In this document: positions 29,081 through 34,408 of the stretch, one piece after another
How the letters are laid out: each line of letters starts with the position of its first letter
How positions within the stretch are numbered: the stretch's first letter is position 1
Made by a program: the position numbers and the translations under genes
The notes under the pieces: generated by a model
Seen by the model: only the letters and a program-made list of their open reading frames with translations
The model's database searches: none
What the model was told of the DNA's origin: nothing
Source: Alphaproteobacteria bacterium
Lineage (GTDB): Bacteria > Pseudomonadota > Alphaproteobacteria > Bin95
Length of the DNA stretch: 64,000 nucleotides
Direction of reading: 5' to 3'
Assembly: GCA_964291285.2 (NCBI GenBank)
Contig: OZ219785.1
Location: forward strand, 288,001 to 352,000

Positions 29081-29207
29081 GGCCCGCCTCCCGTTTGCTG
29101 TTTCCGGCAGTGTACCACGGCCGGCCCCGGATCGGGTTCAGGCAGGCTTTGCGGGCGTCCGTGCCGGCGGCGGAGGATCGTTACATGCTTTTTTTCCTGA
29201 AAAGAGT

Positions 29208-29267
29208 TTGACTTTGTCCCTGAATGGCCTATATTACCCTCCATAAGAGTATGAATCGGGAACGAAC
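29208..29267 (+). promoter_or_regulatory. Sigma-70 promoter with possible LexA box
   Basis: TTGACT-N16-TATATT; GAAT-N7-GAAC at 29253-29267 (alphaproteobacterial SOS box is GAAC-N7-GAAC). Confidence 0.5.
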
Positions 29268-29482
29268 AGGCAGATGACCTGACGGTGCTGAGCGCGTGCG
29301 GCATGGGCCGCCTTGTGGCGCTACTCGGGATTTCGAAGGGCGAAACCGGCCTCGGGCCGGGCAGGGAAGGTGCGCGCGCCGGCCGCGGGAGAACCGACCG
29401 AGTTGTCGTAATTCCGGGGTGGAATCCACGCGCCCGACCCGTTCGAAATAGGCCGCCGGACGGTGCGGCCGGGGGAGGAGTC

Positions 29483-29887
29483 ATGACGGACTTGCTGGCG
29501 GGACGGAGCCAGGGGCTGGCGTTCGGCGAGGACCTGCGCCGCCGGGCGGTTGCGGCGGTGCTGGACGAGGGGATGACCAGGGCGGCCGCGGGCCGGCGGT
29601 TCGGGGTCCATCCCCAGAATATCTCCCGCTGGGTGAAGCGCTATCGGGAGCGCGGCCATCTGCGGCCCGATCCGAGGGGCGGCGACTCCCGGTCCTGGCG
29701 GATCGAGGCGGAGCGGGACCGGATCCACCGCCTTCTGGAGAGGCGGCCGGGCATCAGCATCCGCGCGCTTCGCGACGCGCTGGCAGCGGAGGGCGCCGAG
29801 TTCGGGTTGGGCGCGGTGCAGCGCTTCCTGAAGCGCCACGGCCTGGAGCGCGCCCGCCGCCCGGCCGGGGCCGGCCGGCGCAGGTGA
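29483..29887 (+). CDS. IS630-like transposase N-terminal HTH protein lacking the DDE domain
   Basis: EDLRRRAVAAV..AAGRRFGV..ISRWVKRYRERG..PRGGDSRS..LRDALAAEG..VQRFLKRHGL; GGAGG SD. Confidence 0.75.
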   Translation: MTDLLAGRSQGLAFGEDLRRRAVAAVLDEGMTRAAAGRRFGVHPQNISRWVKRYRERGHLRPDPRGGDSRSWRIEAERDRIHRLLERRPGISIRALRDALAAEGAEFGLGAVQRFLKRHGLERARRPAGAGRRR

Positions 29888-29954
29888 CGGCGGGCGCCCG
29901 GCAGCCGCGCCGATTGCAGGCGGCGGGCCGGCGGAGTAGAAGACGGGCGCCCGG

Positions 29955-30031
29955 CGGGGCGTAGCGCAGCCTGGCAGCGCGTCTGCTTTGGGAGCAGAAG
30001 GTCGCGAGTTCGAATCTCGCCGCCCCGACCA
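29955..30031 (+). tRNA. tRNA-Pro(UGG)
   Basis: Canonical cloverleaf CGGGGCG...CGCCCCG-ACCA; anticodon arm TCTGC-TTTGGGA-GCAGA; TTCGAAT T-loop. Confidence 0.97.
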
Positions 30032-30112
30032 CCGTTCGGACCGCGCGCCCTGCGCCAGCCCGGTCGAGCGCCCGGATTGCGTTACGGGCCCGGGAACGGG
30101 AGGACGGACGGC

Positions 30113-30310
30113 ATGAGCGGCGAAACGGCGGTCATCATCCTTGCGGTCATCGGCGCCGGGGCTGCTCTCGGCCTGCTGATCGTTCCGGGCCAACGCGAAT
30201 TGCGGCGCGACATTGCGAACCTGTGCGAACGAATGGCGCGCGTCGAGGGTGCGGTCGAGGCCCTGCGCAACGCCATTGCGGGGCAGCGGAGGGGAACCGC
30301 CCGCGAATAA
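30113..30310 (+). CDS. Small single-TM coiled-coil protein
   Basis: Hydrophobic N-terminus then RELRRDIANLCERMARVEGAVEAL; GGAGG SD. Confidence 0.65.
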   Translation: MSGETAVIILAVIGAGAALGLLIVPGQRELRRDIANLCERMARVEGAVEALRNAIAGQRRGTARE

Positions 30311-30418
30311 ATCCCGTCCGGCGGGGCCGTTCGTCCTCGTCGCGCGGTTACCGGCGCACGCAACGCATTTTCGGCACTGCCTGGGGCCGGCGTCGGCCTC
30401 CCGACTAGGCGTCCGCAC

Positions 30419-30578
30419 TTACGCCTGCTCGCCGCTCCGCTTGGTGAAGCCCTCGAACAAGCCCTCCAGACGGGCCATGCGCTTGCGCAAGTCGGACATA
30501 TCGCGATGCAGGTTCCAGAGAAAGCCCGCACCACGTTGCGGCGATCCGGTCTAATCCCGTCCGCTCGATCCGTTTCAT
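30419..30578 (-). pseudogene. Degraded paralog of the small coiled-coil protein
   Basis: FLWNLHRDMSDLRKRMARLEGLFEGFTKRSGEQA* resembles 30113-30310; 5' part out of frame. Confidence 0.5.
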
Positions 30579-30847
30579 GCCTTCCACATACCGACAGCGC
30601 TGACCCACCTGTGCCGGGTCGCCCGCTTCCGTAATGGGACTCCGTAGCAGCCAGCGCCGTTGAAGCCTTTGGCAATAGCGGGTGACCCAACCAAGCGGGA
30701 CCCGTGGCGCTGTTTGCAGGGCTATCATCCCAGCAAATTATTTTTCACCAAACGATTGACAAGAGTACATATCCATGATAATTGCGGAGACGGCGGTGGT
30801 GCGGAGAGGCTTGACTCCATTCTGTCTTGATGCAAAATGCGTCTGAA

Positions 30848-30922
30848 GGCGGGGGAGCGTGACGGCCACGCCGGGAACTAGAAAATCCACGTAAGCCGGT
30901 TCGACTCCGGTCCCCGCCTCCA
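30848..30922 (+). tRNA. Non-canonical tRNA: Cys-like body (GGC/GCC, U73), loop CTAGAAA (nominal anticodon AGA)
   Basis: Perfect acceptor GGCGGGG/CCCCGCC-TCCA, D-stem GCGT/ACGC, T-arm GCCGG-TTCGACT-CCGGT; weak 3-bp anticodon stem. Confidence 0.7.
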
Positions 30923-30933
30923 GACATGCCGAA

Positions 30934-31008
30934 CAGGGGGTAGTCTAGCTGGTAAGGCACCCGCTTTAGGAGCGGGAGACTTGGGTTCGAGACCCAACCC
31001 CCTGACCG
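30934..31008 (+). tRNA. Non-canonical tRNA: Pro-like body (C1-G72, A73) with UAG (Leu) anticodon
   Basis: CAGGGGG/CCCCCTG acceptor; CCCGC-TTTAGGA-GCGGG anticodon arm; TTGGG-TTCGAGA-CCCAA T-arm; ends ACCG, not ACCA. Confidence 0.75.
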
Positions 31009-31097
31009 GCGTTTTAATTAGCGTTGACATATTACCTCTTGTCAAGCGCCCTAGTTCTTGATATTTCGTTCAACTGGTGGCTATAGGGAACGCTACC

Positions 31098-31208
31098 ATG
31101 CTGGATAAGGCCAAGCTCGACCTGTTGGCCAAGGTCATGCAGCGCGTGGTTCAGGAACGGCTAACCCCCAATGCTCCCGCCAAGGAACCGCCGCAACCGG
31201 CGAAGTGA
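31098..31208 (+). CDS. Putative 36-aa peptide MLDKAKLDLLAKVMQRVVQERLTPNAPAKEPPQPAK
   Basis: AGGGA SD-like sequence, ATG..TGA, directly downstream of the tRNA pair; translated by hand. Confidence 0.35.
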   Translation: MLDKAKLDLLAKVMQRVVQERLTPNAPAKEPPQPAK

Positions 31209-31230
31209 TCAAGAGACGCAGCAGAGCTTT

Positions 31231-31338
31231 TGGTGCAGGCGGTGGGATTTGAACCCACGGGGCACGGGGTTGCTTGGAAGCTTGCCGCGCCCGCCGGCGT
31301 CTAAGGCCGGTGCAATAAGCCAACTCTGTTACACCTCC
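31231..31338 (-). tRNA. Non-canonical tRNA(UAG) with very long (~35 nt) variable arm
   Basis: GGAGGTG/CGCCTGC-ACCA (one G.G mismatch), CCGGC-CTTAGAC-GCCGG, V-arm GGGCGCGG..CCGTGCCC, GTGGG-TTCAAAT-CCCAC. Confidence 0.75.
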
Positions 31339-31401
31339 AATAGCGTAGCGCCCCGGTTGATATCATATGTCAGCCGGGGCGCAGCTATAACCTAGCATCG
31401 G

Positions 31402-31533
31402 CTAGTCAAGATAAATCTTGAATGCGCATTTGCCATGATCGCGGGCATAGACGCGCGTGCCGTCTTTCTTGGTGAACCAAGGCCGCAGAATGTATCGGCG
31501 ACCATCGGTATCAACGTAGATCTGATCGGACAT
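31402..31533 (-). CDS. 43-aa basic/aromatic peptide MSDQIYVDTDGRRYILRPWFTKKDGTRVYARDHGKCAFKIYLD
   Basis: Strong GGAGGA SD just upstream of the ATG; protein-like composition; too short for the ORF track. Confidence 0.65.
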   Translation of the reverse strand: MSDQIYVDTDGRRYILRPWFTKKDGTRVYARDHGKCAFKIYLD

Positions 31534-31709
31534 TATGTCCTCCACTGGAAAACCTGTGGAGAGACACTTGCGCTAAACAAACTGGTGCGGGTAAGGTTGC
31601 CTTGCTCGCGCCTGATCAGCGCAAGTGCTCTCTGTGGGAGAGTGGGGTCGAGGTCGTCCAAGGGCCTCGGCCCCTTTCCGTTTGACACCTCCTGTCAACG
31701 ACAGGCGTC

Positions 31710-31738
31710 AGGCTAGATCACAGGCAGTGAGGCGTCAA
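31710..31738 (-). promoter_or_regulatory. Sigma-70 promoter for the leader-peptide-tRNA unit
   Basis: TTGACG-N17-TAGCCT. Confidence 0.55.
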
Positions 31739-31798
31739 CATACGAGATGCATGGGAAAGTTTGACAAACTACACAACATCTTGGAAACTGTGGATAAC

Positions 31799-32651
31799 TT
31801 AGTCCACCACCAACCCGGTACACATCACCCGCTTGCCAATTAGCCCAACTACCACGTCGCGCATTTGAGCAATGGTGTCCTCATCTCGCACGTTATGGCG
31901 GCCGGCGAACTCGGTAACGTAGCGATGCAGGTACTTCTGGCTAATCTTGTGGAAAGTGCCCTTATGCGCCCGTTTAAGCATGGCCCAAAATGACTCAATG
32001 CCGTTGGTATAGGTCTGGCCCCGGACGTATTCGCCAACGCTATGATTGACGGCCTCGTGCCTATGCGGCATGCCCTTGTAGGCAACGGCCTTGTCCGTAT
32101 AAACGGTTGCATAGGGCTCAACATACTCGCCGCAAAAAAGCCAGCCAGCGTTGGCGCCACGGTATTTGGGCACGGGCTGCACCTAGACACGCCACGTTGC
32201 CCAATTGCGCGCCCCAACAACAGCAGTTTTGCCAACCATGCCACTTTCTGCGTAACACCAAGGTCGCGATGCAGCTTCATGCTGCTAACGCCCTCGAGGC
32301 TGGTGACGTAGAGGTAAACGGTGAAAGCCCATTTGCGCAGCGGCAGGTTGGTCTCCTCCATGGCGGTGCCCGTGCGGACGCTAAAGTAGTTCTTGCAGTC
32401 CCGAGACCTGTAGGGGGCGGGTTTACGGTTCCTCACCTCATAAACCACATTTGCCGCAGAAGCGACTGCCGAGCCAATGGACCTCCTCAAACCATGCTTC
32501 CGCCGATGCCTCATCGGGAAACATGGCGGCCAACTCCATAAGCGAAATGCCTTTGCGGTGAGCCTTGCCTGGGGCTTTGGTCATGGCGGTTTCTCCCTTT
32601 CAAACAATGCAGGGTGAAACCGGGCCGGAGGCAATCAGGATTATAATTCCC
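31799..32651 (-). mobile_element. IS1595-family (ISXO2-like domain) transposase pseudogene with terminal sequence GGGAATTAT
   Basis: Fragments in several frames: MTKAPGKAHRKGISLMEL (start 32584), FSVRTGTAMEETNLPLRKW..GVSSMKLHRDLGVTQK, YTD..HEAVNHSVGEYVRG..TNGIESFWAMLKR. Confidence 0.88.
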
Positions 32652-32683
32652 AAAGAAAAGGGGCGCCCCGCGAAGGGCGCCCC
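32652..32683 (-). terminator. groEL terminator
   Basis: GGGGCGCCC/GGGCGCCCC stem followed by TTTTCTTT on the minus strand. Confidence 0.8.
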
Positions 32684-32713
32684 AATCGTTGTAACCGTCG
32701 GTGACGGCGTGGA

Positions 32714-34408
<1,695 letters not shown>

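Follow-up and report, generated by a model that had tools for sequence, protein, structure and literature searches.

A lower-GC islet with three tRNA-like genes between tRNA-Pro and groEL of an alphaproteobacterium is probably a decaying remnant of mobile DNA

Between a transfer RNA (tRNA) gene for proline and groEL on contig OZ219785.1 of an Alphaproteobacteria bacterium (assembly GCA_964291285.2) lies an islet of about 2 kb which carries three tRNA-like genes, here called tRNA1 to tRNA3, and two short open reading frames (ORFs), ORF A and ORF B. The window analysed comprises 64,000 nucleotides (nt) of this contig (positions 288,001 to 352,000), and coordinates are counted from its first letter. 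A sequence-only reading had described the islet as a so far undescribed module modulating translation, in which tRNAs with three different bodies share TAG in the anticodon loop and act together with micro-peptides. Our analysis leads to a different view: the islet is probably what is left of phage-like mobile DNA that carried tRNA genes as accessories and is now in decay, and a conserved module dedicated to translation is not supported. Decay is evident from a broken transposase gene, a truncated and inverted copy of an ORF of 77 amino acids (aa), a first tRNA that escapes detection by tRNA search and a third one whose score is 11 bits lower than that of any host tRNA.

Foreign DNA at an insertion hot spot

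The host tRNA-Pro(UGG) gene (29955–30031, plus strand) is called by ARAGORN and reaches 68.1 bits with Rfam. Foreign DNA begins directly 3' of it: a segment of about 2.6 kb is inserted in the spacer towards groEL (32714–34360), which forms the right flank of the islet. The boundaries of this segment, approximately 30053–32650, are set by the breaks in homology to congeners. In a blastn-type comparison of loci, similarity stops after 30031–30038 and restarts at 32642–32658. GC content in 300-nt windows is 0.53–0.58 over 30600–32699 versus 0.70–0.76 in the flanks, bearing out the lower-GC stretch between tRNA-Pro and groEL that had been noticed before. The islet is present as a single copy in its own genome.

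We compared 15 loci from 15 congeners, for which flanks of finite length were fetched. In nine of them the 3' end of tRNA-Pro lies about 15 nt from the groEL terminator. Two loci (L056 and L058, from genomes G004 and G009) carry a different small insert that has the 77-aa ORF in common with the window, and match window positions 29887–30283 at about 80%. Another insert of at least 1.4 kb was found in one locus, and in three loci tRNA-Pro was not within the fetched flank. The spacer of about 15 nt between tRNA-Pro(UGG) and the groEL terminator is a local insertion hot spot. A second variable segment (29127–29868) lies just upstream of tRNA-Pro and covers most of a 200-aa ORF (29285–29887) with helix-turn-helix (HTH) domains of transposase type. 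By blastn G006 and G010 have this segment, whereas at least G005, G007, G014, G015, G008 and G003 lack it.

tRNA2 has the body of a phage-type tRNA-Pro

The best preserved tRNA of the islet is tRNA2 (30934–31007, plus strand), a type-I tRNA of 74 nt which ARAGORN labels "tRNA-Leu(tag)". This program makes two calls in the window, the other being the host tRNA-Pro(UGG). With 61.6 bits (Rfam cut-off 29) tRNA2 falls inside the range of 49.3–77.2 bits shown by the host tRNAs when the whole genome is searched with RF00005, and its folding beats that of shuffled sequences (z −3.24, none of 200 shuffles folding as well). It features C1:G72, A73, G36 and G37 and is followed by GTTTT. Among the 47 CCA-ending ARAGORN calls of this genome, the combination of C1:G72 and A73 is confined to three Pro tRNAs. 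All 47 of these host tRNAs encode CCA; tRNA2 does not, and a member of the CCA-adding enzyme family is encoded in the genome.

Searching phages by blastn, we found tRNA2 to be identical at 27 of 29 positions, from D loop to variable loop, to the tRNA-Pro of Streptomyces phage Samy. The latter belongs to a Gln-Cys-Leu-Pro array (OR263580.1) and matches 32 phage records, 29 of them annotated as tRNA-Pro, one as tRNA-Gln and two unannotated. A match of 82 nt at 77% was obtained between tRNA2 and viral locus L126. An alignment of eight sequences (A5) was built from tRNA2, six phage tRNA-Pro and the host tRNA-Pro. All eight have C1:G72, the cloverleaf is paired in 98.2% of 167 cells, and 13 of the 21 pairs change on both sides in a compensatory manner, a value reached by 0/500 shuffles. 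The loop UUUGGGA with the same closing pair occurs in 7/7 of the compared tRNA-Pro. tRNA2 departs from this loop at position 35 alone, where it has A in place of the G35 found in all seven, and keeps G36. Judged by these comparisons, tRNA2 is a tRNA-Pro(UGG) of phage type by descent, in which the single change G35A gives UAG. The mismatch between body and anticodon proposed for it is upheld by the C1:G72/A73 acceptor end, by the phage match and by a loop that differs only at position 35.

We also looked for other tRNAs with the same change. In the viral contigs the Pro-type arm pattern occurs with UGG in 35 stretches (ARAGORN makes 36 tRNA-Pro(tgg) calls there) and with UAG in none. An exact scan with the tRNA2 arm plus UAG gave no match. 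A looser tRNA2 pattern allowing any anticodon had no match in the genome contigs, although it fixes the D and T loops and misses distant relatives. The exact scan of the viral contigs with the tRNA2 D arm returned one match, which lies inside a coding region and was discarded as a chance match.

Two observations concern the surroundings of these tRNAs. In the record of phage Samy (L120; array tRNA positions 390–459 and 500–574) the annotated tRNA-Cys is not called by ARAGORN, its loop apparently having C at 33. A further member of the array is a short-arm tRNA of 75 nt that has A73 and the Leu anticodon CAG; going by anticodon, this phage array thus includes a type-I "tRNA-Leu". In the islet the 5' leader of tRNA2 pairs with its 3' trailer (30928–30941 with 30997–31010; 14 nt, 86%), lengthening the acceptor helix, and tRNA1 shows the same arrangement (30841–30854 with 30912–30925; 14 nt, 93%).

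tRNA1 is decayed and tRNA3 marginal

tRNA1 (30848–30922, plus strand; U73, encoded CCA) is 11 nt apart from tRNA2. It shares 59 of 75 positions with the canonical tRNA-Cys(GCA) of G629, a genome of the same class, and 55 with the host tRNA-Cys. G stands at positions 8 and 14, where U8 and A14 are universal, and the anticodon stem has mismatches at 27:43 and 31:39. The anticodon read in register from a 7-nt loop is AGA, not GCA; alternatively, the loop has an extra base and is 8 nt long. Its TAG string comprises U33, A34 and G35, and UAG stands at positions 34–36 in neither register. tRNA1 is called neither by ARAGORN nor by RF00005 at E≤0.01 genome-wide, its folding energy is ordinary (z 0.31, 115 of 200 shuffles folding as well), and an exact scan with its arm gave no match. 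The sole Rfam match is to tRNA-Sec with 30.1 bits; this identity was rejected, the score being below the cut-off of 47, a long variable arm being absent and the homology to tRNA-Cys being clear. tRNA1 is best described, from its sequence, as a decayed tRNA-Cys homologue. Of the proposed Cys-like tRNA with a foreign anticodon the mismatch with the Cys-type body stands, whereas tRNA search does not recognise the gene and TAG is out of register.

tRNA3 (31231–31338, minus strand) is a type-II tRNA with an Rfam score of 38.4 bits over 105 nt (31338–31234; cut-off 29). Among the 48 RF00005 hits in the genome this score ranks last, with a gap of 11 bits to the weakest host tRNA. The gene is not among the ARAGORN calls, and it folds modestly better than shuffled sequences (z −1.63, 17 of 200 folding as well). 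UAG is in register, the universal nucleotides are kept, and A37, A73, an encoded CCA and a variable region of 35 nt are present. Flaws are a weak D stem and a G2·G71 mismatch, so the statement that all three tRNAs have a well-paired acceptor arm does not hold for tRNA3. Its 5' 46 nt resemble the host tRNA-Ser(UGA) at 32 positions versus 28 for the host tRNA-Leu(UAG), and its 3' part is closest to tRNA-Leu(UAG). G37 is expected in tRNA-Leu reading CUN codons; the host tRNA-Leu(UAG) has G37, whereas tRNA3 has A37. By sequence comparison tRNA3 seems to be a marginal tRNA of mixed Ser-like and Leu-like type. A scan with its anticodon arm found one chance hairpin, which is not a tRNA.

The shared TAG and codon usage

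The presence of TAG in all three anticodon loops had been regarded as hard to explain by random decay. The strings CTAGAAA, TTTAGGA and CTTAGAC are indeed present, but TAG is in register in two of the three only. By our own arithmetic, the chance of finding TAG anywhere in a random 7-nt loop with U33 fixed is about 0.11, or roughly 1 in 9, and the out-of-register TAG of tRNA1 is therefore unremarkable. The UAG of tRNA2 is one G-to-A transition away from the invariant UGG of its family. The UAG of tRNA3 may be native if the tRNA is of Leu type, or may have arisen by two changes from Ser(UGA).

CUA is the second rarest sense codon of the host, with 875 of 1,081,582 codons in 2,102 long ORFs (0.81 per 1000), which agrees with the rarity assumed before; CUG reaches 47 per 1000 codons. 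The host tRNA set is complete with 46 tRNAs plus tRNA-Sec and includes a canonical tRNA-Leu(UAG), and the host needs nothing from the islet. Nine more ARAGORN calls in the whole genome (G000), such as Cys(aca) at C1:205124, lie in GC-rich DNA and have no CCA end; absent from the RF00005 list, they are probably false positives. Codon compensation predicts just such a foreign tRNA that reads CUA. Chance together with codon compensation suffices to explain the sharing of TAG.

A broken IS1595 transposase and signals in the islet

The right third of the islet is occupied by a transposase pseudogene of the IS1595 family of insertion sequences (IS) at 31802–32617 on the minus strand, which the sequence-only reading had missed. 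It consists of three pieces in frames −3, −1 and −3 and lacks about 46 residues. Pfam DDE_Tnp_IS1595 matches with E 2e-21, over profile positions 69–153 only. A tblastn alignment with intact copies of 335–339 aa from the same genome displays two frame changes and an internal deletion, and terminal inverted repeats were not found at the locus. The copy thus differs from an intact IS1595 element in its partial DDE match, its frame changes and the terminal inverted repeats not found.

On the plus strand a promoter-like site TTGACT-16-CAAAAT (30811–30838; 9/12 matches) ends 9 nt before tRNA1. The promoter scan gave two sites versus 0.9±1.0 expected, so such sites are not enriched. Two other promoter-like sites had been claimed for the islet; the TTGACA of one is present at 30756, but neither is among the two sites of the scan. 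Sequencing run X3 of the same organism reads T for C at 30833, the first base of CAAAAT, which is nearer to the consensus.

Two structural claims proved correct. ORF B is preceded by a structured 5' leader (31534–31705, minus strand) with a minimum free energy of −78 kcal/mol (z −4.93, 0/200 shuffles folding as well), in which one hairpin covers part of the ribosome-binding site. Compared with Rfam at E≤10 the leader had chance-level matches only, with no T-box or riboswitch family among them. A GC-rich hairpin with 16-nt arms that are 88% complementary is situated between ORF B and tRNA3 (31348–31382), as proposed, and has no T-run on either strand. A terminator-like hairpin with a T-run (31644–31684, plus strand; 12 pairs, 9 of them G-C) lies antisense to the ORF B leader.

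The 10-mer CTCYTGTCAA (TTGACARGAG on the other strand) occurs at 30756–30765 (minus), 31036–31045 (plus) and 31689–31698 (plus). These are its only three matches in the 64-kb window, all within the islet, versus 0.07 expected for a motif that was chosen post hoc. The repeats may represent an operator or a shared −35 region. Two of the sites sit within a TTGACA...TGTCAA palindrome.

ORF B belongs to a small-protein family of mobile elements

ORF B (43 aa; 31402–31533, minus strand) is a small-protein gene with a GGAGGA ribosome-binding site. Its family has the core YIFRPWITxKDGxRIYAKxYGKxAFKI, across which the window ORF aligns. Twenty-five representatives were found at E≤0.001, the best at 2.3e-06. 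R17, G25, A30 and G34 are invariant in the 24 aligned sequences of alignment A1, from which two long proteins (P0005, 1137 aa; P0022, 713 aa) were excluded. The AlphaFold model shows a small beta fold with a predicted local distance difference test (pLDDT) of 89.7, and a fold search against PDB gave no match at E≤0.001. None of ORF A, ORF B and the 77-aa ORF had a significant family match in Pfam, PHROGs, NCBIfam or PADLOC, and the Atlas search yielded unnamed clusters only.

For the loci of ORF B relatives we used a narrower alignment (A3), which fixes YGKKAFKI in place of YGKxAFKI and consequently samples mainly Firmicutes. The loci compared comprise 36 genomic loci (L018–L053), 8 metagenomic loci (L070–L077) and 30 viral contigs containing ORF B relatives (L090–L119). 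Of the 44 genomic and metagenomic loci, 13 have an XRE HTH gene and 11 have an ImmA/IrrE peptidase gene upstream on the same strand; other loci have a serine recombinase, tyrosine integrase or terminase nearby. The family is rare in a sample of the phylum, with 3/401 genomes including the genome studied here.

A tRNA lies within 500 nt of the ORF B relative in 7/36 genomic, 0/8 metagenomic and 2/30 viral loci (9/74). All nine are ordinary tRNAs on the opposite strand. Six of the seven genomic loci share their neighbours and are probably one lineage. This proximity looks like integration beside tRNA genes rather than partnership. ORF B is a true small-protein gene of regulatory regions in prophages and integrative and conjugative elements (ICEs), unlinked to tRNAs. 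Viral contig L116 (3553–3623, minus strand) has two tRNAs behind an ORF B relative; one of them (63.3 bits) has anticodon AGG in the loop CUAGGGA and an acceptor end, G1:C72/U73, that is not Pro-like.

ORF A (36 aa; 31098–31208, plus strand), taken from the ORF list, is doubtful as a gene. Besides itself it has one homologue (P0039, 28/36 identical), and on inspection a ribosome-binding site was not seen before it. The idea of micro-peptides as tRNA partners is thereby reduced to its first half: both ORFs are present and ORF B is real, but the relatives of ORF B lie near tRNAs in 9 of 74 loci only, and those tRNAs are ordinary.

The 77-aa ORF (30077–30310, plus strand), which stands at the same spot in two congeners, has a hydrophobic N-terminus followed by RRDIANLxERMARVEG. 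A truncated, inverted paralogue of its C-terminal half is located at 30422–30535 on the minus strand, preceded by stop codons; its translation is identical to the 77-aa ORF in 11/22 residues (BLASTP, E 6e-07).

Distribution of the islet

A homologue of the islet was not found in 40 relatives or in 36 genomes of the family, nor in 400 genomes of the class beyond short matches to tRNA arms. Its DNA was also not found in the plasmid and phage collections, either by blastn or by tblastn with ORF B. The expected conservation of gene order across genomes is therefore missing in all of these sets. The relatives of the single tRNAs that do exist carry canonical anticodons, UGG in the Pro-type arms of the viral contigs and GCA in the relatives of tRNA1, which leans towards refuting a module built around TAG.

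One variant was obtained from a metagenome. In run X4 a contig of 2,799 nt aligns on 31085–32130 with 97 differing letters and 5 gaps. Its joints connect 30718 to 31024 and 32130 to 32642, with flanking pieces of only 27 nt. The variant has ORF A, tRNA3, ORF B and part of the IS. The alignment, which does not give the sequence between the joints, leaves uncovered 305 nt with the promoter-like site, tRNA1 and tRNA2. With this single variant, aligned without the tRNA1-tRNA2 block, as the only case of the elements occurring together elsewhere, the evidence again leans against a module.

A composite scar as the best explanation

The best explanation of the islet is that phage- or ICE-like DNA, acquired horizontally, left a composite scar in the tRNA-Pro/groEL spacer. 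The element presumably brought along a Cys-type tRNA, a phage-type tRNA-Pro(UGG) and a long-arm tRNA reading CUA, together with a small gene of the kind found in prophage and ICE regulatory regions (ORF B) and an IS1595 copy. Everything else in that element would then have been lost and the survivors left to drift, with the transposase broken, tRNA1 decayed and tRNA3 marginal. tRNA1 would have lost nucleotides of the tertiary core, pairing in the anticodon stem and its GCA anticodon, while tRNA2 would have stayed intact in structure and changed from UGG to UAG by the G35A transition. The data themselves establish the insertion, its foreign composition, the homology of each tRNA, the broken state of the transposase gene and the setting of ORF B in mobile elements. 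We infer that the tRNAs were cargo of one element, that tRNA3 once supplied CUA decoding and that the anticodon changes are drift and not design.

Phage tRNA arrays are a close parallel. tRNA2 is homologous to the phage tRNA-Pro(UGG) lineage represented in the array of Samy, the Cys-type and Pro-type tRNAs of the islet are as tightly spaced as array members, and UAG fits a host-rare codon as in phage tRNAs that compensate codon usage. Unlike such arrays, the islet has no phage genome around it, one member is decayed, two anticodons are not those of the canonical relatives of the bodies, and the block lies in a 2.6-kb chromosomal scar beside an IS pseudogene.

Several observations weigh against a drifting remnant. 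The insertion is directly 3' of tRNA-Pro as in an integrative element targeting tRNA genes, but no integrase ORF was found in the insert (ORF list and Pfam) and a repeat search found no second, directly repeated copy of the tRNA-Pro 3' end at the far junction. Decay is also uneven. The damage to tRNA1 affects mainly the anticodon arm and the D loop and spares the acceptor and T arms, which are perfect. tRNA2 is free of decay except at position 35: every one of its 21 stem pairs is kept, as are the universal nucleotides. A promoter-like site precedes tRNA2 and a T-run follows it. Two different bodies share an in-register UAG and the third has the string out of register. The 10-mer recurring three times hints that the parts of the islet belong together, bearing in mind that the motif was chosen post hoc. 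Finally, the block is found with hardly any change in three runs of the same organism, which a single study produced and which do not count as independent. No RNA run was among the sequencing runs found. The undecayed state of tRNA2, the damage to the anticodon arm of tRNA1 and the threefold 10-mer are the reasons why we keep selection on TAG as a possibility.

Alternative explanations

tRNA2 might be expressed, charged by prolyl-tRNA synthetase (ProRS) via C1:G72, A73 and G36, and read CUA, perhaps also other CUN codons, as proline. It would then be a naturally acquired Leu-to-Pro mistranslator acting at a low level, tolerated because CUA is so rare in the host. We consider this unlikely. It is true that the Pro acceptor signature is found in 3/3 Pro tRNAs and in 0/44 other CCA-ending calls, that the loop of tRNA2 is that of tRNA-Pro apart from G35A with G37 kept, and that its cloverleaf is intact in a genome encoding a CCA-adding enzyme family member. 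tRNAProN, which has U35 and U36, is still charged by E. coli ProRS and mistranslates (PMC10404621). G35, however, is an identity element for ProRS (PMC10404621), and an extra ProRS-like gene was not found: PF00587 has four hits genome-wide, none of them in the window. Wobble of U34 onto the frequent codon CUG would cost the host. Moreover, tRNA2 is a singleton, its UAG being absent from viral arms of its type, and the X4 variant aligns without the tRNA1-tRNA2 block.

The tRNAProX family (tRNAProA, tRNAProN and tRNAProT of Streptomyces and Kitasatospora; PMC10404621) resembles tRNA2 in combining a Pro acceptor (C1:G72, A73) with the anticodon of another amino acid, and by analogy charging of tRNA2 by ordinary ProRS is conceivable. 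The differences are substantial. In our own numbering of the Rfam alignment tRNA2 has U33, U34, G15:C48 and A21, where the family is described with A33, A34, A15:A48 and G21 (PMC10404621). The family has a full-length or truncated ProRSx as neighbour according to the same source, whereas the insert has no synthetase-like ORF. tRNA2 is one base away from a normal tRNA-Pro, and no relatives with the same change were found. Mistranslating variants of human tRNA-Ala and tRNA-Ser (PMC12084884, PMC12993449) likewise arise from one anticodon substitution in a normal tRNA gene; in those cases AlaRS and SerRS ignore the anticodon, while ProRS reads G35 and G36. A complete cassette, in which tRNA2 would be transcribed from its own promoter, completed by the host CCA enzyme and charged by ProRS to place proline at CUA, with tRNA3, Ser-like in its 5' half and Leu-like in its A73 and 3' end, maybe acting likewise with Ser or Leu, and which would have arisen independently of tRNAProX, is improbable as well.

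Another explanation starts from elements of the ORF B type that integrate next to tRNA-Leu genes: tRNA3 would be no cargo but an attachment-site tRNA, captured or hybrid, which such an element took along. This would explain both the mixed Ser-like and Leu-like halves of tRNA3 (5' half nearest Ser(UGA), 3' part nearest Leu(UAG)) and its G2·G71 acceptor mismatch. In 6/36 genome loci the ORF B relative lies 356–417 nt from a host tRNA-Leu (five UAG, one CAG), and in three of these six (L032, L035, L037; Pfam was run on L037) a serine-recombinase ORF is within 3 kb. As these six loci share neighbours, they probably count as one lineage, and the tRNA is convergent with the ORF there, whereas in the islet it is downstream on the same strand. 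In addition, 32 versus 28 of 46 is a small difference, and the 35-nt variable region matches neither parent. We therefore hold little confidence in such an origin of tRNA3.

The tRNAs could also be irregular RNAs outside translation, tied to a function like that of toxin-antitoxin systems or transposons; ORF A, ORF B and the antisense layout would be their partners. Irregular tRNAs, possibly acting as missense suppressors, are known from polycistrons close to toxin-antitoxin systems or transposon genes, and some of these tRNAs are charged yet not used in translation (PMC5389517). Such polycistrons are the nearest precedent of the idea with which this work started, so the module cannot be called undescribed. 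The islet shares with allo-tRNAs and irregular polycistrons the clustering of odd tRNAs, unexpected anticodons and a location in mobile or accessory DNA, and some irregular copies are pseudogenes overlapping transposon genes (PMC5389517). Two converging, overlapping transcription units, the structured ORF B leader and the common 10-mer would fit such a function. The defining 12-bp branch of allo-tRNAs, arranged 8/4 or 9/3 (PMC5389517), is not found in tRNA3, however: drawn as 8/4, tRNA3 gains a U8·C65 mismatch in addition to G2·G71, and Rfam aligns it as 7/5. Its identification as an allo-tRNA was rejected, neither arrangement fitting. For tRNA1 both 7/5 and 8/4 can be drawn, U11 having G55 and G95 as alternative partners. 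Toxin-antitoxin genes were not recognised in the islet, and searches with ORF A and ORF B gave no toxin-antitoxin or defence family. The normal place of ORF B relatives is behind an XRE-ImmA pair, without tRNAs, and tRNA1 and tRNA2 have plain canonical homologues. Furthermore, the attribution in the paper is to acidobacteria (PMC5389517), a phylum other than that of the host. A role of this kind is very unlikely.

That the tRNAs serve as phage counter-defence, replacing or decoying targets of host anticodon nucleases, is the most far-fetched of these possibilities: phage tRNAs have been proposed to evade VapC, PrrC and colicin-type tRNases by anticodon-loop changes (PMC10264068) and tRNA2 is of phage type, but that model keeps the anticodon and alters neighbouring loop bases (PMC10264068), whereas here the anticodon itself is altered, no phage genome is left around the tRNAs, and PADLOC has no match for ORF A, ORF B or the 77-aa ORF.

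Implications

If tRNA2 turned out to be made and to receive proline, bacteria would have a second tRNA, evolved independently, that rewrites a sense codon, deliberately or accidentally. Such a tRNA would then be obtainable by a single base change without a dedicated synthetase, and the islet would be a horizontally acquired, codon-targeted mistranslation cassette that burdens CUA-rich incoming DNA more than the host. As a decaying remnant, which we favour, the islet is instructive without being out of the ordinary, showing that phage-type tRNA genes can be retained in a small chromosomal scar. It also cautions against annotation by anticodon, since the label "tRNA-Leu(tag)" misnames a tRNA that by descent is a tRNA-Pro. 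Perhaps more durable, as a side product, is the 43-aa ORF: the family of small proteins it represents is unannotated and is regularly encoded behind XRE-ImmA pairs in prophages and ICEs.

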